DNA of 6,145 nt from a virus (taxonomy: Duplodnaviria > Heunggongvirae > Uroviricota > Caudoviricetes). The position numbers and the translations under genes were made by a program. Positions within the stretch are counted from its first letter, which is position 1. Each line of letters starts with the position of its first letter. Below are positions 1 to 6,145 of this stretch, one piece after another. The stretch is from IMG/VR virus record IMGVR_UViG_2703718819_000022, positions 1 to 6,145 of that record. The stretch is one strand, 5' to 3'. Under the pieces are notes generated by a model. It worked only from the letters and a program-made list of their open reading frames with translations. It was not told the DNA's origin and did no database searches.

Positions 1-405
1 ATGGATCAGGTCGTTGTTTTTCAAAAGATGTTTGAGCAAGTGAGAAAAGAGCAAAACTTCTCCTGGTTTTATTCAGAATTAAAACATCACCGTATTGCAC
101 ATTACATTTATTATCTGGCTACGGATAACATCAGAATTATTACTCACGATGACACGGTTTTGTTATTAAGAGGAACCAGGAACCTGTTAAAAGTTAGTAC
201 GACCAAGAACCCTGCTAAAATAAAAGAGGCCGCATTGCTTCATATTTGCGGAAAATCTACATTTCGGGAATACTGTTCAACACTAGCAGGCGCGGGCGTT
301 TTCCGGTGGGTTACTGATGTTAATCATAACAAACGCAGTTACTACGCCATTGATAATACGCTTTTATATATTGAAGATGTAGAAAATAATAAACCATTAA
401 TCTAG
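1..405 (+). CDS. hypothetical protein (134 aa), AT-rich; possible accessory/cargo gene; may be 5-prime truncated at the window edge
   Basis: ORF starts with ATG at base 1 and ends at TAG 403-405. Composition is visibly AT-rich compared with the rest of the window. No family recognised from the translation. Confidence 0.45.
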   Translation: MDQVVVFQKMFEQVRKEQNFSWFYSELKHHRIAHYIYYLATDNIRIITHDDTVLLLRGTRNLLKVSTTKNPAKIKEAALLHICGKSTFREYCSTLAGAGVFRWVTDVNHNKRSYYAIDNTLLYIEDVENNKPLI

Positions 406-639
406 CTAAAGTTGGATGCTTAAGAAATGCTGTTATATATAACTAATTTCACTTAACGCATTGATTTAATTAAATAATTTGCACTACAAAAAATGCCATA
501 AATCGCAAAATGACTACACCAGTGACTACACCGTTCGGTGCACTGTATGAAACAACGTGGAACAAATAGACACAAGAAATATACAGGCGGGTCATCTTTC
601 CAGGGGGAAGCGCGCTAATTCATGAGGGGCGTTAATGTC

Positions 640-1020
640 GATATGGGGATCCCCACCTACCGGAATTTTTTTCCGGTTAACTGTTAATCAGGCTGGTGGG
701 TTTTACATACCCTTGATCACCGTAATGATGATCCAGATCTGCACCTTTCCACCAATGGTGGAAAAGCCCACAGCAGGCCGCCCAGCCTCCACCAATGGGG
801 TAAAAGCATCAACCGTAACGAAAGTCGTTATGGTTGCCACCGATACCCCAAATTTGGGTATCACGAGTAAGCCCCAAAATCTGGGTGTTACTCTTACTAC
901 CCAAACTACGGGTAGTTTCCGTAGTTTCATGGTCGAGTTGCAGATCTGCAACTCCCCCATTAACCACAGGCGAATTTCCGCCTTCGGTCATTCCTTAATC
1001 ATCTGCGTAATCATAATGAT
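640..1020. repeat. dense array of short dyad-symmetric sequences (palindromes/hairpins), function unknown
   Basis: Seen directly: GGGGATCCCC 645-654; CCGGAA-T5-TTCCGG 660-676; CCACCA-A-TGGTGG 749-761 with degenerate copy near 787-799; AACGA-AAG-TCGTT 817-829; CCCAAATTTGGG 847-858 with degenerate copy near 872-886; AAACTACGG-N7-CCGTAGTTT 903-927; perfect 20-bp palindrome GAGTTGCAGATCTGCAACTC 935-954; AATCAT-A-ATGATT 1009-1021. Confidence 0.6.
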
Positions 1021-1023
1021 TAT

Positions 1024-1115
1024 TCAGCAAGCGCAATTTTGCGCTTTGCTTAAAGTTCAGCGAGTTACCGCGCCGACTTCCTCAAATTGAGGTTTCCGAA
1101 AATATCAACGGGTTA
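1024..1115. repeat. repeat block A: motif Y (GCGCAATTTTGCG...TCAGCGAGTTACCGCGCC, 1031-1074) followed by motif X (GTTTCCGAAAATATCAACGGGTTA, 1092-1115)
   Basis: Direct sequence comparison with block B at 1205-1277: motif X matches at 23 of 24 positions, motif Y shares two conserved sub-blocks separated by a diverged 13-nt spacer. Order of X and Y is swapped between the two blocks. Confidence 0.7.
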
Positions 1116-1139
1116 ACGATAAACTGGCGAGTAATTAAA

Positions 1140-1156
1140 CTACGAAAATTTCGTAG
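1140..1156. repeat. perfect palindrome CTACGAAA-A-TTTCGTAG (8-bp arms, 1-nt centre) lying between the two X motifs
   Basis: Read directly from sequence; reverse complement is identical apart from the central base. Confidence 0.7.
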
Positions 1157-1204
1157 CTCTGACTATCTGAAAGATAATCGTTGTTCCGGCCTCAGCCGTT
1201 GGCT

Positions 1205-1277
1205 GTTCCCGAAAATATCAACGGGTTAGGACAGAGCGCAATTTTGCGTTATCGGGAATATCAGCAAGTTACCGCCG
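1205..1277. repeat. repeat block B: motif X (GTTCCCGAAAATATCAACGGGTTA, 1205-1228) followed by motif Y (AGCGCAATTTTGCG...TCAGCAAGTTACCGCCG, 1235-1277)
   Basis: See block A. The last few codons of the 93-aa minus-strand gene overlap the end of this block. Confidence 0.7.
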
Positions 1278-1550
1278 TAATCGCTCCGGCTTCTTCCACT
1301 GGTACGTTATTTTTGCTTTTTCCCTGTACGTCTGCACGCGGCGACGGTAGGCCAGCATTTCAAGAACGCGGATCCGTATGTCGCGCATATCCGCATCATT
1401 AAGCTGGATACCATCACGGCGCATCACCTCCGCAACAACACGCACATAATTTTCGGCTGTCACGCTGTCCGGCTGCGTGGCCTGTTCGTCAGCCTGCTGG
1501 CTGATTCCGGCAACGCGACGGATTAATCGCAGTAGTTCGGCTTCTGTCAT
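1269..1550 (-). CDS. hypothetical protein (93 aa) adjacent to cos; candidate packaging-associated or regulatory factor
   Basis: The track ORF 1269..1748 begins at a GTG. The in-frame ATG at 1550-1548 is preceded by a GGGGG Shine-Dalgarno about 4 nt upstream (GATGGGGGCACA-ATG). Translation from that ATG (MTEAELLRLIRRVAG...) looks like a helical protein. No family recognised. Confidence 0.55.
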   Translation of the reverse strand: MTEAELLRLIRRVAGISQQADEQATQPDSVTAENYVRVVAEVMRRDGIQLNDADMRDIRIRVLEMLAYRRRVQTYREKAKITYQWKKPERLRR

Positions 1551-1583
1551 TGTGCCCCCATCGTTCTGATAGTCTGGTGTCGT

Positions 1584-1654
1584 CGGGTCCTTCCTGGAAT
1601 TATGGCCCGTTACGGGGCGGCGACCTCGCGCGTTTTCACTATTTATGAAAATTT
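1584..1654 (+). other. lambda-type cos, copy 1: cosQ-like GTTACG followed by cosN GGGCGGCGACCT (1615-1626), then CGCGCGTTTTCACTATTTATGAAAATTTT
   Basis: Near-identity to the phage lambda left-end sequence as I recall it (GGGCGGCGACCTCGCGGGTTTTCGCTATTTATGAAAATTTTCCGG), including the 12-nt cohesive-end sequence. Forms an inverted repeat with 2110-2181. Confidence 0.8.
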
Positions 1655-1663
1655 TCCGGGATC

Positions 1664-1782
1664 CATGTCCGGTTTCTCTGCAAGTTAACCATATGAAAAA
1701 TATAAAAACATGCTTTCCATGAACCGGACATGCGCAAAAAACAGACACTAAAACCGGACATCGTACCAGTTAACCGGAAGTG
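1664..1782 (+). promoter_or_regulatory. cosB-like region: one CATGTCCGGTT site (1664-1674), an AT-rich spacer (about 1690-1710), then inverted sites AACCGGACATG (1722-1732), AACCGGACATC (1752-1762) and AACCGGAAGTG (1772-1782)
   Basis: Repeats read directly. Their orientation pattern and distances from cosN (about +50, +108, +138) match the R3 / I1 / R2 / R1 layout of lambda cosB as I recall it. No terminase gene follows. Confidence 0.6.
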
Positions 1783-1955
1783 TGCAAAAATCACACGCAT
1801 TGCTGCGCGTGATTAACAATTTATCGGCTTTACTGTTCTGTATAGGCTGGGTGGCGTCATGCCGTAGCCGTTCTCCGTGCCAGCATGGAATAATCCGTAG
1901 TTACAGAGCGGTAAAGTTAAAAATCACTTTCTGTTACGCCATCAAATACGCGATA

Positions 1956-2100
1956 CAACAACCATGTGTTTTTACAAAACCATTTGATATCATTGAATTT
2001 TTTCACATTAATGACATCAAAATACATCGTAAGGTTGTTGTATTTATTTTATTTTTACCTTACTTATCAATTAGATATACCAAACAATTAAACAACAACC
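1956..2100 (-). repeat. second putative terminase-binding repeat set next to cos copy 2: ACAACAACC 1956-1964, GGTTGTTGT 2033-2041, ACAACAACC 2092-2100, with an AT-rich tract between
   Basis: Short repeats read directly. Relative to cosN copy 2 they sit at about +45, +110 and +190 on the minus strand with one site inverted. The motif is short, so chance occurrence is possible. Confidence 0.3.
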
Positions 2101-2109
2101 ACCCCCTCA

Positions 2110-2181
2110 AAAAATCTCATAAATAGCGAAAAACCGCGAGGTCGCCGCCCCGTAACGGGTCCATATGCCGGAAAGGACCCG
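2110..2181 (-). other. lambda-type cos, copy 2 (inverted): cosN GGGCGGCGACCT is the reverse complement of 2139-2150, preceded on the minus strand by GTTACG
   Basis: Minus-strand reading CGGGTCCTTTCCGGCATATGGACCCGTTACGGGGCGGCGACCTCGCGGTTTTTCGCTATTTATGAGATTTTTT aligns at roughly 85 percent (by eye) with copy 1 at 1584-1654, and is even closer to the recalled lambda sequence in the CGCGG-TTTTCGCTATTTATGA part. Confidence 0.75.
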
Positions 2182-2182
2182 T

Positions 2183-2206
2183 AAAAAAAAGCCGGATTTC
2201 TCCGGC
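2183..2206 (-). terminator. intrinsic terminator ending the capsid operon
   Basis: Hairpin GCCGGA-TTTC-TCCGGC (2191-2206) followed on the minus strand by T8 (plus-strand A-run 2183-2190), starting 7 nt after the stop codon at 2213-2215. Confidence 0.8.
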
Positions 2207-2212
2207 CTTGTC

Positions 2213-2626
2213 TCAGATGGTTTTCAGTATGCGATCGATGTCGCCGTCATCGCCCTGGTTTCTGCCATCGTACGCCATGCCAGCTGATACGGCTTGCGGG
2301 CTGTGCATGTCCATAAAGTTTTCAAAGGCTGCGGTAAGCTCTGGTGCAACCTTTGGGCGCTCCTGCTCTATGGTCATGTTCAGGATTTCACGAGCATTAT
2401 CGACGCTAATACATGGCACGTTTGCCATTGCACGTAACAGCGGCTGATAGTCGTTATGTTCATGAAGCGCCATAATCGCATCAGCGCGCGGCTTGTCCTG
2501 TTCTTCCAGTTTGTTGAGTTGATATACGGCCTCGTAGGTTGATAAACCTCTGTCAGCCATTGCCCGCGCTTCTGCTTTAAATTTACTCGCCAGCGGTAGC
2601 GCCATGATGCTTTCATTCGTTGCCAT
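2213..2626 (-). CDS. hypothetical protein (137 aa), last gene of the capsid operon
   Basis: ATG at 2626-2624 preceded by AGGGGA about 5 nt upstream; 12-nt gap after the gpD-like stop; followed immediately by the terminator. No family recognised. Confidence 0.65.
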   Translation of the reverse strand: MATNESIMALPLASKFKAEARAMADRGLSTYEAVYQLNKLEEQDKPRADAIMALHEHNDYQPLLRAMANVPCISVDNAREILNMTIEQERPKVAPELTAAFENFMDMHSPQAVSAGMAYDGRNQGDDGDIDRILKTI

Positions 2627-2638
2627 CGTTTCCCCTGC

Positions 2639-2974
2639 TTATCGCGCCAGCGGCTGAACGGATACGCCAGAACCCGCAAAGGCGGCGCATTTTTTCGCGT
2701 CAGTGTCGGCGCTCTCAGGCCAGTTTACGGCGGCGATATTAAATATCCCCGTCTTGTAACACTGTGCTGATTTCTGCTTTGACGTGTCCACGGGGTACGA
2801 AGTCAGATAAACAGCCTTGCCAGATTCCTGACCATCCCACGGCTTAAACTCGCCATTGTCCGCCAGCATCAGCGGGGTAAATTCCTGAATAACGCCAGCA
2901 TCAGCGGCAAAATGTACCAGCGTCGTGGATACCTGCTGACTGCCTGCAAATAACTCAATGTATGGAGTGTCCAT
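2639..2974 (-). CDS. head decoration protein, phage lambda gpD-like (111 aa)
   Basis: By-eye alignment with recalled lambda gpD: TPLMLADNGEFKPWDG vs TPLMLDTSSRKLVAWDG, and CYKTGIFNIAAVNWPESADTDAKKCAAFAGSGVSV vs [42 protein letters not shown] Shine-Dalgarno 6 nt upstream of the ATG at 2974. Confidence 0.85.
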   Translation of the reverse strand: MDTPYIELFAGSQQVSTTLVHFAADAGVIQEFTPLMLADNGEFKPWDGQESGKAVYLTSYPVDTSKQKSAQCYKTGIFNIAAVNWPESADTDAKKCAAFAGSGVSVQPLAR

Positions 2975-2986
2975 AGAATCCCCCCG

Positions 2987-4042
2987 TTAACCAATTTTGA
3001 CGGTAACAAATTTGCGAATATCTGCCGGAACCGGCTGCGGTGCGCTGTGCGTCTGCACGTACTCAATCGCCGGATCGCCGTCCTCAATCCAGTTTTTCGG
3101 GTAAAACATGTTTTGCGTTGCGCCCGTTCTTACCGCTTCCTGTTCCATAATCGCACCATAGGCCACCAGCCCTTTATTGTTGGTGTTGCCCAGGACCAGC
3201 AAATCAGGCTCAAGGAAATATTTTTCTGTGCCGTCGCTGTCAGTGTATTTGCCGGAATAGACGATAAGGGCCAGATCACCAAGATAGCCCTTAAAGCTCA
3301 CCACTTCGCCCAGGTTTTTACATGCCAGCTCTGCGGCGGATTCTGAACCACGGGAAAGATCGTACAGCTCACGGAATTTTTTAAAGCTGCGTAACATGCG
3401 CCATACATCAACGCCCATAATCATGACGTTGGCGGGGCAACCTGCCTGATCTGCGTATAGCTCAATGTCATAGATTGGATCGTGTATGTCTTTATCCTGC
3501 TCGGACCATTTTTTACCGTCGGCCTGCTCTATGATGTTTTTTTCCGGTATCTTCCAGTCGATTTCATAGCGCTCTATGCCTTCGCCCTCAATGATGTTTT
3601 TTCCGGTCGTTACCGCATTTACCGCCAGCCATTCCACGCGCGCTTTAATGGCGTTTATCTGGCGGCGCATGTTGCCAGTAATCAGGCGCATACGGCGGTA
3701 GGTAGGGTCGTTAAGCTGTGCCGGATCTTCTCCAGCCATGCGCATTATTGTTTTTAATGGATCGATTTCGTGTTTTGGCTTCATGTAGCCAGGGCGAATA
3801 ATGCTGGTTTCGTACCCTTTATCGCGCTGAACCAGGCTACCAACCATAGGCGAACAAAACGCCGACATAGTGACTTCTTCAATATCCAGGTTATCTAACA
3901 TGATGTCCTGTGTGTTGAATGTCGCCACGTTCGGGAAAAACAGCGCGGTAAACAGCGGACTGAATTTAAATTCCGCAATATCCTCGCGATTCAGGTACGC
4001 AAAAAGCTGGTTAGTGTTAAGTGCTATTGCTTTTACTGTCAT
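2987..4042 (-). CDS. major capsid protein, phage lambda gpE-like (351 aa)
   Basis: Full-length by-eye alignment with recalled lambda gpE (341 aa): EFKFSPLF / KFKFDPLF; PGYMKPKHEIDP / PGYVKPKHEVNP; EDPAQLNDPTYRRMRLI / EDPQNLADPAYRRRRII; LRSFKKFRELYDLSRGSESAAELACKNLGEVVSFKGYLGDLALIVYSGKY / FRSFKAVKEKLDTRRGSNSELETAVKDLGKAVSYKGMYGDVAIVVYSGQY; YPKNWIEDGDPAIEY..SAP / YPKNWVTTGDPAREF..SAP. GGGGGTGA Shine-Dalgarno; start overlaps the upstream stop as TAATG. Confidence 0.92.
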   Translation of the reverse strand: MTVKAIALNTNQLFAYLNREDIAEFKFSPLFTALFFPNVATFNTQDIMLDNLDIEEVTMSAFCSPMVGSLVQRDKGYETSIIRPGYMKPKHEIDPLKTIMRMAGEDPAQLNDPTYRRMRLITGNMRRQINAIKARVEWLAVNAVTTGKNIIEGEGIERYEIDWKIPEKNIIEQADGKKWSEQDKDIHDPIYDIELYADQAGCPANVMIMGVDVWRMLRSFKKFRELYDLSRGSESAAELACKNLGEVVSFKGYLGDLALIVYSGKYTDSDGTEKYFLEPDLLVLGNTNNKGLVAYGAIMEQEAVRTGATQNMFYPKNWIEDGDPAIEYVQTHSAPQPVPADIRKFVTVKIG

Positions 4043-4248
4043 TATTCACCCCCGTGAACCTGATTCATACCCAGCGCCGCGCGTAAATAGGCGCGTACCT
4101 GCCAGCCTGTTGACGGCTCAACCATCGCCAGCGGATCAAGTCCTGCCGCAATGCCTGCTTTTACGTTCTGCTGGTGGCGTTCCTTGAGCGCCTTCACGAT
4201 GTCGGGGCTTATGTACACCGAAACACCGCCTTTTTTCTCTTCAGCCAT
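4042..4248 (-). CDS. hypothetical protein (68 aa), first gene of the capsid operon, translationally coupled to the capsid gene
   Basis: ATG at 4248-4246 with AAGAGGA Shine-Dalgarno about 10 nt upstream; stop TAA overlaps the gpE-like ATG (TAATG). No family recognised. Confidence 0.6.
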   Translation of the reverse strand: MAEEKKGGVSVYISPDIVKALKERHQQNVKAGIAAGLDPLAMVEPSTGWQVRAYLRAALGMNQVHGGE

Positions 4249-4283
4249 AGTAAGAAATTCCTCTTTGACTTAAAAAATCATAA

Positions 4284-4299
4284 CTGGATGTTCATCCAG
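4284..4299. promoter_or_regulatory. operator-like dyad CTGGATG-TT-CATCCAG overlapping the predicted transcription start of the capsid operon
   Basis: Perfect 7-bp inverted arms with 2-bp spacer, read directly. Geometry is CTG-N10-CAG, the LexA-box geometry, but the interior is not the AT-rich consensus. Confidence 0.45.
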
Positions 4300-4304
4300 A
4301 TCTG

Positions 4305-4332
4305 ATTATAATCATGATTGCATTTTATGCAA
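4305..4332 (-). promoter_or_regulatory. sigma70 promoter for the capsid operon: -35 TTGCAT (4332-4327), 16-bp spacer, -10 TATAAT (4310-4305)
   Basis: Near-consensus hexamers read on the minus strand, about 50 nt upstream of the 68-aa ORF start. The -35 sits inside a second dyad TTGCAT-TTT-ATGCAA (4318-4332). Confidence 0.65.
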
Positions 4333-4410
4333 TGATGTTGAGTTGTGTTGCAAATTATGAAATGATGATCCCGATCATGTGTGTCAGTGCACAAAAAAAA
4401 CCTCATATGC

Positions 4411-4453
4411 AAAAGCCCGATAAGATGCCTCCTGTACTTATCGGGCTTTTTTT
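4411..4453. terminator. intrinsic terminator hairpin GCCCGATAAG-N12-CTTATCGGGC with T7 on the plus strand and T4 (then T8) on the minus strand; probably bidirectional
   Basis: 10-bp perfect stem 4415-4424 / 4437-4446, T-run 4447-4453, flanking A-runs 4411-4414 and 4393-4400. Confidence 0.7.
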
Positions 4454-4459
4454 GGGTAC

Positions 4460-4481
4460 AAAAAAGCCGGATTACTCCGGC
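4460..4481 (-). terminator. intrinsic terminator for the ssb / 90-aa transcript
   Basis: Hairpin GCCGGA-TTAC-TCCGGC (4466-4481) followed on the minus strand by T6 (plus-strand A-run 4460-4465), 7 nt after the stop at 4488-4490. Confidence 0.75.
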
Positions 4482-4487
4482 TGTTGA

Positions 4488-4760
4488 TTAGCTGTCTGGG
4501 TAATTACGCCATATTTCATCGCTTACACCATCTATACCCATTTCAGCATAAGTGCGATCTACTGCCTTTCTCAGGTCTCCGAAGTTATCCGGCGGCTCCG
4601 GTGGCTTCTGTGCCTTCCTGGAACATTCCAGCCGTCGCATCGTAACCTGATGCCGTTCCTTGTCTGTCTCCACCAGCAGCATGACTTCACCCCATCGCGC
4701 CGATGCCCTCCGGTAAAAGCCTTTTGCCTCGAGTTCCTCCGCTATGCGGTCATGTACCAT
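4488..4760 (-). CDS. hypothetical protein (90 aa) downstream of ssb
   Basis: The track ORF 4488..4880 begins at a GTG inside ssb. The in-frame ATG at 4760-4758 lies just after the ssb stop (4771-4773) and is preceded by GAGGGGG about 6 nt upstream, so the shorter product MVHDRIAEELEAKG... is preferred. Confidence 0.55.
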   Translation of the reverse strand: MVHDRIAEELEAKGFYRRASARWGEVMLLVETDKERHQVTMRRLECSRKAQKPPEPPDNFGDLRKAVDRTYAEMGIDGVSDEIWRNYPDS

Positions 4761-4770
4761 CGTCACCCCC

Positions 4771-5181
4771 TCAGAACTGAATATCATCACCGTAGGGGTC
4801 ATCGTCTCCCGCTGGTGGCTGATTACCCTGTGTGCCTGTGGTTTTGCGTCTGTTCCCGCCAGGACGTGCCGCACGGGCACTGATTACGCTGTCTGCAATA
4901 ACCTGATAACCCTGCCGCGTTTCCCCGTTCTGTCCGGTCCACTGGCTGACCTGCATCGTGCCGGATACGCTGGCAACGTCGCCTTTTTGATGTTTAGCCA
5001 GGAAGTCGGCCTGCTTACCAAATGCGATGACCGATAGCCATAACGTCGCCTGCCCATCCTGCGCCTGACTACATGGCAACGATACCGCCATACGTGCCAG
5101 CGTCATTGGTGTGCCCTTGCTGGTCTGTTTTACCTGCGGGTCGTCCACCAGCCGCCCGTAAGCTGCTATCTGTGCTGTCAT
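4771..5181 (-). CDS. ssb: single-stranded DNA-binding protein (136 aa)
   Basis: OB-fold-like core alignable by eye with E. coli SSB (WLSVIAFGKQADFLAKHQKGDVASVSGTMQVSQWTGQNGETRQGYQVIADSV vs [51 protein letters not shown]). Gly/Pro-rich linker and acidic C-terminal tip DDDPYGDDIQF (compare DFDDDIPF). GGAGAGG Shine-Dalgarno. Confidence 0.85.
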   Translation of the reverse strand: MTAQIAAYGRLVDDPQVKQTSKGTPMTLARMAVSLPCSQAQDGQATLWLSVIAFGKQADFLAKHQKGDVASVSGTMQVSQWTGQNGETRQGYQVIADSVISARAARPGGNRRKTTGTQGNQPPAGDDDPYGDDIQF

Positions 5182-5457
5182 GATTCCACCTCTCCGGTTT
5201 TAACGTTGATGGTTGTTACCTGTTCCGCTTCGGCAATCTCCCGCTCTGTCAGCGTGGCAAAATTTGCCGCCGTCGTGGTCATGAATGCGCTTATCAGTTC
5301 GGGATGTGCTTTCGCGTATCCTTCCCCCCGCGTGGCGGTCTATCGTTCTGATTGCCACCTTTAAAGCGTGCTCTGTCATGTCTAACGCGCGATATTTCGG
5401 TTCTGTTCTGTCTCTGCGTTTTTTGAGTGATTTGTTAAATCTTCCTGATGTGTGCAT
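5178..5457 (-). pseudogene. small gene immediately upstream of ssb, apparently split between two reading frames at a C6/G6 homopolymer (5324-5329)
   Basis: Frame 1 (track ORF 5200..5457, ATG at 5457) gives a plausible N-terminus (MHTSGRFNKSLKKRRDRTEPKYRALDMTEHALKVAIRTIDRH) and then low-complexity sequence. A second frame, open from 5339 to a TGA at 5178-5180, gives protein-like sequence (GEGYAKAHPELISAFMTTTAANFATLTEREIAEAEQVTTINVKTGEVES) and ends in an ATGA overlap with the ssb start codon. The two frames meet at the homopolymer. Confidence 0.4.
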
Positions 5458-5505
5458 TTTTATTTTTACCCTCGTGTTTAAAAAGTTTTAGGTTGTGGTG
5501 CACCT

Positions 5506-5729
5506 CCTCTACCTCTCTACCTAATCATCTTTCATGTCAGTAATGGCGCGGCTTTCAGATGGGTAGAGGGCTTTCGTGGCCCTCTACCCATCCTCTACCC
5601 GCCCCTCACAAACGATCTTAATCATGGTAGAAGAGGTAGAGAGGTTTTATTAGCCTTCTACCTAGCCCTCTACCCACTTATCATGTTGAATAATATGCGT
5701 TTATTTCATTCAGGTAGATGGGGTAGAGG
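5506..5729. repeat. iteron array, putative replication origin: at least 11 copies of CCTCTACC / GGTAGAGG in alternating paired orientation, separated by AT-rich spacers
   Basis: Copies read directly at 5506-5513, 5514-5521, 5562-5569 (inv), 5581-5588, 5592-5599, 5626-5633 (inv, degenerate), 5635-5644 (inv), 5654-5662 (degenerate), 5667-5674, 5713-5720 (inv, degenerate), 5722-5729 (inv). Includes a perfect 14-bp-arm inverted repeat GATGGGTAGAGGGC-N7-GCCCTCTACCCATC at 5558-5592. Lies directly after the C-terminus of the gene at 5744..6145. Confidence 0.7.
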
Positions 5730-5743
5730 GCTTTTACAAAAAA

Positions 5744-6145
5744 TTATAAAAACGCGTCACAATCATCAGTTGTAATTGCGTTGGTCTGCGTTACTCCCTT
5801 AACTCTCCGCGTAATATATTCATGTCCGTAAACTTTTGCCGCTGGCTTCATGGCCTTGCTGAACTCAGCCACGTTTAGCGGTTTGCTCCTGCCTGCGTAT
5901 GCCATAAACGCCAGATAGACGCGGTAAAGGCTGTTTCTGGTCGTGTACTTCACTGAATCGCCACCGCCGCCCATCATCAGGCCGCGTGCTTCCTCCAGAA
6001 AATTCAGGAACTGGCAAAACTCAATAACCGGATCCGTCTGTTGCTTTATTGCCAGAGCTTCATCACCGTCGCGCTGTTCCAGTAATAAAGCCCGTGCCTT
6101 TTCAGGGTCGGCAAAATTAGCCAGCAAGCGACGGATAATTACGGG
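5744..6145 (-). CDS. C-terminal fragment of a larger protein running off the right edge; putative replication initiator (primase/Rep-like) by position next to the iteron origin
   Basis: The reading frame is open to the window edge: the track start at 6127 is a TTG and the codons upstream of it (PVIIRR) continue in frame to base 6145. Stop at 5744-5746 immediately flanks the iterons. Function is inferred from synteny only. Confidence 0.5.
   Translation of the reverse strand, partial: PVIIRRLLANFADPEKARALLLEQRDGDEALAIKQQTDPVIEFCQFLNFLEEARGLMMGGGGDSVKYTTRNSLYRVYLAFMAYAGRSKPLNVAEFSKAMKPAAKVYGHEYITRRVKGVTQTNAITTDDCDAFL

Follow-up and report, generated by a model that had tools for sequence, protein, structure and literature searches.

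Why would a small satellite element carry two packaging sites that point at each other? The question is raised by the 6,145-nt stretch analysed here (the window; IMG/VR record IMGVR_UViG_2703718819_000022, positions 1 to 6,145), in which two complete lambda-type cos sites face each other and share the same cosQ-cosN-I2 core. By sequence, the window is assigned to a cos-type phage-inducible chromosomal island (PICI) of the EcCICFT073 family, about 11 kb in size, and the feature of interest is its packaging module. The authors of the work on EcCICFT073 themselves asked in print why certain PICIs bear two cos sites that differ (PMC6739421). We consider it probable, from the comparisons below, that the pair forms a dual-specificity cos cassette which is independent of Rpp, the hijacking protein of related islands, and that either of two phage lineages could probably package the island.

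Two lambda-type cos sites face each other

A repeat search of the window found two inverted arms of 72 nt with 454 nt between them, in line with the inverted repeats of about 71 bp, separated by about 455 bp, that had been described in an earlier sequence-only reading of this DNA. The arms are identical at 60 of 72 positions (83% complementary) and have in common a perfect 25-bp core (1606-1630) centred on cosN. The 22-mer GTTACGGGGCGGCGACCTCGCG occurs exactly twice in the window, on the plus strand at 1609-1630 and on the minus strand at 2135-2156, whereas none is expected from shuffled sequences. An exact search placed the cohesive-end 12-mer GGGCGGCGACCT at both cosN copies (1615-1626, plus; 2139-2150, minus), just where that reading had claimed them. 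Both copies have cosQ upstream of cosN and an I2-equivalent segment downstream, and this shared core is the part read by the large terminase of the helper. The alignment against lambdoid cos regions which had been proposed as a check gave matches to lambda and phage 21, to PhiR12-type phages and to a lineage with a small terminase subunit (TerS) of 174 aa. In BLAST, the arms are 82.9-85.9% identical to phage 21 and lambda cos records, with copy 2 reaching 85.5% against lambda records. Each arm is also identical at 60 of 72 positions to the cosQ-cosN-I2 sequence of lambda.

The pair itself is a rediscovery, since two cos sites have already been published for EcCICFT073 and were shown to be functional in 2018 (ISME J) and 2019 (Mol Cell) by Fillol-Salom et al. 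(PMC6092414, PMC6739421). A head-to-head pair is therefore not unusual for this family, contrary to the earlier reading, and is also present in islands of Nissle 1917 and O157:H7. The O157-type two-arm arrangement occurs in 382 genomes. Both arms are kept in every related island examined, and the idea that copy 2 is a fused remnant of a neighbouring prophage was rejected on this ground.

The window is 91-97% identical across its length to EcCICFT073 of E. coli CFT073, the model PICI of Gram-negative bacteria. The features of the family were recovered in the window and the closest complete islands, namely an integrase, an AlpA-type regulator, a primase-replicase, an iteron origin, a size of about 11 kb, site-specific insertion and a pair of cos sites where the capsid-gene operon ends, together with the lack of lysis, tail or terminase genes. 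The closest complete genome, that of E. coli STEC2018-607 (NZ_CP075697.1), has two such islands of about 11 kb (L001 and L006), each with an integrase and a helix-turn-helix regulator, one at tRNA-Pro and one inside tqsA; the nearest islands are 98.4% and 99.2% identical to the window. An orphan cos had been read as the mark of a helper-dependent element, and the family assignment agrees with this, as homologous cos sites mediate helper-dependent transfer (PMC6092414, PMC6739421).

Each cosB matches a different phage lineage

The region behind copy 1 (cosB1) has its counterpart in PhiR12-type lambdoid phages. Window positions 1583-1761 (179 bp) match five PhiR12 phage records at 93.9% identity, and in these phages Nu1 starts 49 bp past the cos homology and is followed by the large terminase subunit (TerL), W and portal. 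The R3-like element of cosB1 is invariant in phage and island copies. The motif AACCGGACATG with at most one mismatch was found 3 times against 0.12 expected, and a fourth, degenerate repeat with 2 mismatches to it lies at 1772-1782, starting at +158 from cosN. The same scan places the lambda R core motifs at +53, +114 and +155. The lambda-like repeats that the sequence-only reading saw after copy 1 are thus real, and the spacing and inversion of R3 and R2 match lambda, but the likeness to lambda is incomplete in two respects, which are weighed below. The lambda layout, in which R3, an inverted R2 and R1 are accompanied by a site for integration host factor (IHF) between R3 and R2, is accordingly present only in part.

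Copy 2 owns a separate set of repeats of the GGTTGTTGTAT type, at +51, +108 (inverted) and +188, which had been overlooked. With an IHF-consensus-like site between R3 and R2, the whole lambda layout is found in this cosB (cosB2), and the I1 region of lambda likewise has 1 mismatch to the IHF consensus, at +79. Positions 1950-2181 are 91-95% identical over 232-238 bp to three IMG/VR sequences (L064, L067 and L103) cut from viral contigs of 41-50 kb. The homology stops about 9 nt short of the start of the phage 174-aa TerS (MTYGEEMAFLL...), which in the phage contigs precedes TerL, W and portal, with 95% identity to their PhiR12 equivalents. A TerS open reading frame (ORF) follows the cosB2-type cos in about 60 viral contigs. 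An Rpp-specific cosB was not found at this copy, as the window has GGGGGTGGTTGTTGTTT where the R3 region of CFT073 cos1 has GTGACACCACCACCAC.

Taken together, the two cosBs reproduce almost exactly the non-coding cos regions of two different natural lambdoid lineages of E. coli, and each copy breaks off where terS starts in the phage or slightly ahead of it. The TerS proteins of both lineages belong to Pfam Phage_Nu1; they are near-identical over about 80 C-terminal residues, whereas the first 30 or so, at the DNA-binding end, cannot be aligned. Judged from these alignments, TerL, portal and the C-terminus of TerS differ little between the lineages, while the TerS DNA-binding domains are unrelated. 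In both cosB families R3, R2 and R1 are the same in all phage and island copies aligned, and only the intervening sequence varies. Of the roles which had been suggested for the pair, use by two terminase specificities is strongly supported by this comparison, since each cosB matches a lineage with a different TerS DNA-binding domain. What is new is that the published “divergent” cosB of cos2 and the second cosB of this island are identified as the native cosBs of two common phage lineages. In collection-wide counts over 5426 complete E. coli genomes, prophages having cosB1 with its TerS (Nu1) DNA-binding domain were present in 1155 and those having cosB2 with its TerS domain in 245, so that roughly one complete genome in five has a mimicked helper of the cosB1 type and roughly one in twenty has one of the cosB2 type.

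The arrangement resembles that of lambda and phage 21, where one shared cosN and large-terminase machinery is combined with alternative cosBs read by alternative TerS N-terminal domains. The two lineages seen here differ from each other in the same modular manner; the difference is that both cosB specificities lie on one small satellite, inverted. The likeness to lambda extends to the R3-I1-R2-R1 layout with R2 inverted (PMC9026076), whereas the R sequences of the window (of the CATGTCCGGTT type and the GGTTGTTGT type) differ from CGTTTCC of lambda.

Some loci combine these parts differently. The cosN variant GGGCGTCGACCT was combined with the same cosB in L009, L014 and L025, and GGGTCGGTGGAC or GGGTAGCCATAC stands where cosN should be in L075, L079 and L090. 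Variant or different cosN sequences with the same cosB, in islands as well as in phages, suggest independent exchange of cosN and cosB. The cosB1 R3 motif was found in 51 metagenome contigs, 32 in phage context, 14 in islands, 3 in island-phage joins and 2 uninformative; a scan of genome contigs for the cosB1 motif gave no match. In the three joins (L027, L038 and L040) the 93-aa island gene beside arm 1 is connected via cos-cosB1 to phage Nu1, TerL, W and portal, and these phage genes are 95-99% identical to PhiR12. Such contigs may be genuine recombinants of island and phage, perhaps joined by their cohesive ends, or else chimeras that arose in assembly over the 179 bp in common. The idea that the 93-aa gene and copy 1 were captured together as a phage block was rejected for the gene, which has no tblastn match among 50,697 phage records.

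The spacer holds rpp debris and no terminase gene

A Pfam search of the window ORFs found no Nu1/TerS after either copy. With five TerS/Rpp proteins as tblastn queries, neither the window nor the two complete islands closest to it gave a TerS or Rpp, save for a C-terminal remnant of RppA (residues 123-144; 73% identity, E 9e-6) at 1846-1911. The earlier remark that no Nu1/TerS follows the cos is in this way borne out, and the lack of a terS directly downstream of either cosB is what would be expected for the orphan cos of a satellite. Likewise, none of RppA, RppB or RppC (144-153 aa, with a TerS-like winged-helix domain) is encoded, as needed for Rpp-dependent redirection, and the alignment with CFT073 shows that the gene has been replaced.

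The rpp debris lies head to head, which suggests that the cassette consists of the fused rpp-distal halves of two Rpp cassettes. The sequences on either side suggest as partners a CFT073-like cassette, with cosB1 by the rpp 3' end, and an L079/L090-like cassette, with cosB2 by the rpp 3' end. Other contents of the spacer were also considered. The 114-aa ORF at 1782-2126 was rejected as a gene, having no PHROG match; nothing from Rfam was found in 1500-2300, and no promoter in a scan of 1584-2181. Descent of Rpp from a PhiR12-type TerS, with cosB1 as the Rpp target, was also rejected, since only 9 of 31 residues are in common and the Rpp-dependent cos1 is the other arm (Fig. S1A).

Comparison with published islands

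Each EcCICFT073 cos site gives a plasmid phage-mediated transfer, and deletion of both abolishes transfer of the island, which needs TerS and TerL of the helper (PMC6092414, PMC6739421). In this island cos1 is required for transfer by lambda and phi80, and the reader of its cosB is a heterocomplex that the helper TerS forms with RppA (c1503), a protein of the island (PMC6092414, PMC6739421). Induction, excision and transfer at high frequency by a helper phage have been published for EcCICFT073 only. Fig. S1A of PMC6739421 shows cos2 to be the arm by the 93-aa gene, with CCGGACATG repeats and the same sequence as copy 1 of the window, and cos1 to be the arm by the 137-aa gene, with a cosB that overlaps the rppA promoter and 5' end. 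The authors reported no phage cosB in either site (PMC6092414, PMC6739421), and Murialdo and Feiss analysed only the Rpp-specific R3 of cos1 (PMC9026076). In the literature searched, no paper was found that explains cos2 or mentions orientation, and the available portions of PMC6092414 and PMC6739421 make no mention of relative orientation or orientation polymorphism.

The window thus shares with EcCICFT073 the family, the flanking genes and two inward-facing arms, and its copy 1 with cosB1 is 97% identical to the published cos2. In contrast, EcCICFT073 has a 144-aa rppA between its sites, the 5' region of which serves as the cosB of cos1 and is recognised by RppA-TerS; the window lacks both rppA and this cosB, and a phage-type cosB2 and rpp debris stand in their place. 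The two arms and the flanking genes recur in the Nissle 1917 and O157:H7 islands, which have on the 137-aa-gene side a cosB resembling cosB2 over 2073-2181. They differ in having a 180-aa TerS of the Phage_Nu1 family between the arms, after that cosB. The Nissle cosB on the 93-aa-gene side is also found in phage contigs, upstream of TerS and TerL, and the TerS following it in phages has a phage 21-type N-terminus. For the O157-type cosB on this side no phage counterpart was found, all 4 viral-contig matches being islands.

Compared across these islands, the arm on the 93-aa-gene side tends to have a helper-type cosB and the arm on the 137-aa-gene side the cosB of an island-encoded TerS or Rpp. 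The window is the variant in which both cosBs are of the helper type and nothing is encoded, and such an Rpp-less island with two phage-type cosBs is new. Three island-like IMG/VR sequences (L144, L145 and L155) have the cosB shared with Nissle followed by a 194-aa TerS, with the 93-aa gene downstream and reversed, and are another cassette type of the same family.

Outside the family, the closest likeness is to the cos-type Staphylococcus aureus pathogenicity islands (SaPIs). As described in PMC6092414, SaPIbov5 is a terminase-less satellite with the cos of its helper, packaged by the helper terminase, and SaPIbov4 is cited there with two putative cos sites; the SaPIs differ in being Gram-positive elements with an unrelated cos sequence.

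The cassette occurs in both orientations

A further new point is that the segment between the cos sites is found either way round. In S1-CAM-02-A (L003), the same island is inserted at the same site with collinear flanks, and 1584-2181 is reversed. The cosQ halves stay with the flanks, and it is the I2 and cosB halves that have turned along with the inner part, which places the crossover in the 25-bp core. Among complete genomes, cosB1 lies beside the 93-aa gene in 41 and beside the 137-aa gene in 31, and the rpp-less cassette has the orientation of the window in 3 and the reverse in 11. Both orientations recur in metagenomes and viral contigs, for rpp-less and rppA cassettes alike. When islands of opposite orientation are compared, identity is 99.3-99.6% in the 536-bp inner segment; their flanks are mosaic, with 87-99% identity on the 93-aa side.

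The orientation is far more uniform in O157-type cassettes (382:3); of the matching copies, about 351 have an identity of 99% or more to the query. Among the window genes, none beside the segment encodes an invertase or another recombinase, and no dedicated inversion recombinase was found in the closest islands. The inversion is thus real but rare and no programmed switch, given the 382:3 ratio and the lack of a recombinase gene. Several loci have mosaic or homogenised arm haplotypes, as general recombination or gene conversion would leave them if the place of the crossover varied. The suggestion that the repeats mark an invertible segment accordingly survives as an evolutionary polymorphism, in which inverted repeats bound the segment in both orientations; a fast phase-variation switch was rejected on the ratio in the O157-type islands.

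The Mu G and P1 C segments and the Hin/Gin/Cin systems are recombinase-driven invertible segments bounded by inverted repeats. They resemble the cassette in that a segment bounded by inverted repeats is found both ways; the window differs from them in having neither a recombinase gene nor evidence of frequent flips, and in crossovers that vary.

The orientation polymorphism shows that the module is a recombination cassette, which bears on the exchange of packaging specificity between satellites and phages. The two islands of STEC2018-607 have an identical rpp-less cos cassette, with different integrases and insertion sites, and one of them has no gene for single-stranded DNA-binding protein (SSB); the presence of the same cassette in both backbones is evidence that it moves between islands.

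A proposed mechanism and its alternatives

In the mechanism we propose, a helper of either lineage would bind the matching cosB directly with its own TerS and nick the adjacent cosN. Packaging would then proceed inward, crossing the spacer and the opposite cos, and go on round the concatemer of the island. The inverted cos would be unable to end packaging, because termination in lambda is orientation-dependent, and packaging would end at a cos of the same orientation with a full head, after several island units. Inverted placement would be the stable way to have two cos sites, since direct repeats would delete or duplicate the interval whenever start and end used different copies. The arms would double as recombination targets, and the inner cassette would be found in both orientations and swapped between islands as a result. 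This would offer a concrete answer to the question of why there are two cos sites, in that one site (here both) is a verbatim cosB of a natural helper and the second would widen the helper range. If so, the island would be packaged without the Rpp protein. The matter is of relevance to forecasts of which prophages will mobilise such islands together with their cargo, and to the design of PICI-based delivery vehicles whose helper range is chosen.

Several observations weigh against a dual-specificity cassette. The third repeat of copy 1 is in the R2 orientation, opposite to R1 of lambda, and no IHF consensus within 1 mismatch was found in this copy. In EcCICFT073 the equivalent of copy 1 (cos2) is dispensable, and its loss raised lambda-mediated transfer (PMC6092414, PMC6739421). 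The rpp-less cassette is rare (14 of the 5426 complete genomes), and with the rpp debris this means that it could be a recent decay product. An unlikely alternative builds on some of these points, in which only one cos works and the other is an eroding leftover of a cassette that once had rpp or terS with the cognate cosB: the spacer contains rpp 3' debris and a terS stub of 2 codons, the cassette is rare, and in EcCICFT073 one site was not only dispensable with the helpers tested but better removed. However, cosQ is intact and cosN exact in both copies, which also retain I2 and the full set of three R elements, with identity to the counterparts in living phages, and the inner 536 bp is better conserved between islands of opposite orientation than the flanks on the 93-aa side. 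The phage homology also stops on both sides exactly at the edges of the functional non-coding cos region, which looks like kept function and not like random decay. As for the EcCICFT073 result, the only helpers tried with cos2 were lambda, phi80 and phage 4, none of which has a PhiR12-type TerS, and the published rise in lambda transfer would fit a site which is useless or mildly harmful with a non-matching helper.

It is quite doubtful that the sites, as exact mimics of the helper cos, are mainly decoys for its terminase, so that interference without Rpp would be their role and transfer secondary. The island has no Rpp, which is a known interference protein, and two inward cuts would be expected to free a dead-end fragment; yet homologous sites have been reported to mediate transfer, and competition is a by-product of any shared cos, so that the decoy idea is compatible with dual specificity. 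Least credible is a programmed switch with frequent flips of packaging direction or gene expression. Such a switch could draw on the cosB1 cassettes being found both ways in similar numbers of genomes, in metagenomes and in viral contigs, and on the L003 crossover in the core containing cosN. It is contradicted by the missing recombinase, by the near-fixed orientation of the closely related O157-type copies, by a segment which in the window has no gene or convincing promoter, and by arm haplotypes of the kind that general recombination and gene conversion would give. A more speculative addition, which we rate as improbable, is that the helper terminase itself rearranges the module, by terminase-driven inversion or exchange of cassettes via cos. 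Cuts at both cosN would free the inner fragment with the same 12-nt cohesive end on each side, and the fragment could re-anneal either way or be swapped with the equivalent of a co-resident island or phage. The L003 crossover in the cosN core, an inner cassette more conserved than the flanks and the three island-phage join contigs would all fit. If this were true, PICIs would shuffle cosB, rpp and terS modules and thereby change their helper range.

Features of the module and its surroundings

The coordinates of the module are collected in Table 1. The 137-aa gene is the last of an operon with the 68-aa, major capsid and decoration genes.

Table 1. Coordinates of the cos module and adjoining features in the window (offsets are counted from cosN)
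Feature	Position	Strand	Remarks
93-aa gene beside arm 1	1269-1550	-	Island-specific, phrog_1561, function unknown
Homology to complete cos-cosB of PhiR12-type lambdoid phages	1583-1761	+	Stops directly after R1
cos arm 1	1584-1655	+	cosQ 1584-1594, cosN 1615-1626, I2-equivalent segment; published EcCICFT073 “cos2”
cosB1 R3-like element	1664-1674	-	CATGTCCGGTT on plus strand; +50
cosB1 R2-like element	1722-1732	+	AACCGGACATG; +108, inverted relative to R3
cosB1 R1-like element	1752-1762	+	AACCGGACATC; +138
Terminator-like hairpin	1794-1811	-	Conserved with region just downstream of CFT073 rppA
rpp 3'-end remnants, head to head	1830-1911		Minus strand, last 5 codons and stop (1830-1847); plus strand, last 22 codons (1846-1911), internal stop
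ATG-GCG-TAA	1934-1942	-	At start position of phage 174-aa terS; gene itself absent
Homology to complete cos-cosB of second lambdoid lineage	1950-2181	-	TerS of lineage 174 aa, begins MTYGEE
cosB2 R1-like element	1953-1963	-	GGTTGTTGTAT; +188, R3 orientation
cosB2 R2-like element	2033-2043	+	+108, inverted relative to R3
IHF-consensus-like site	2065-2077	+	TATCAATTAGATA, 1 mismatch; +74, between R3 and R2 of cosB2
cosB2 R3-like element	2090-2100	-	GGTTGTTGTTT; +51
cos arm 2	2110-2181	-	cosQ 2170-2181, cosN 2139-2150, I2; position of published “cos1”, different cosB
Intrinsic terminator	2188-2209	-	Ends capsid-gene operon, directly outside arm 2
137-aa gene beside arm 2	2213-2626	-	Resembles C-terminal part of head maturation protease

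The minus-strand genes of the window comprise a primase C-terminus, SSB, a PerC-type regulator, the 68-aa gene, the capsid set and, beyond the cos sites, the 93-aa gene. The capsid set (2213-4248, minus strand) encodes the 68-aa protein, a lambda gpE-type major capsid protein of 351 aa, a gpD-type decoration protein of 111 aa and the 137-aa protein, the last of which matches phrog_53, in the C-terminal part of the head maturation protease (E 7e-10). It has no portal, protease or terminase. In the published work, deletions of c1499 and c1500 did not relieve interference.

On the other side of the cos sites, about 730 bp (540-1269) without a convincing gene lie between a probable attachment-site (att) core at about 507-543 and the 93-aa gene. 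The core is repeated beside the integrase in L006. The 730-bp stretch holds the repeat families GTTTCCGAAAATATCAACGGGTTA (three copies), AGCGCAATTTTGCG (two) and TCCACCAATGGTGGAAAAGC (two) and is common to many islands inserted in tqsA. A DUF1398 gene (1-405) abuts the tqsA-side junction at 428. The join of 1-427 to the sequence from 428 onward was found in no complete E. coli genome of the collection and may represent a rearranged or draft locus, or another element next door.

Iterons of the type GGTAGAGG lie at about 5500-5740. Between them and the SSB gene, the ORF at 5200-5457 (minus strand) is annotated as frameshifted in L001 and L006, and CFT073 has an intact 85-aa gene at this place.

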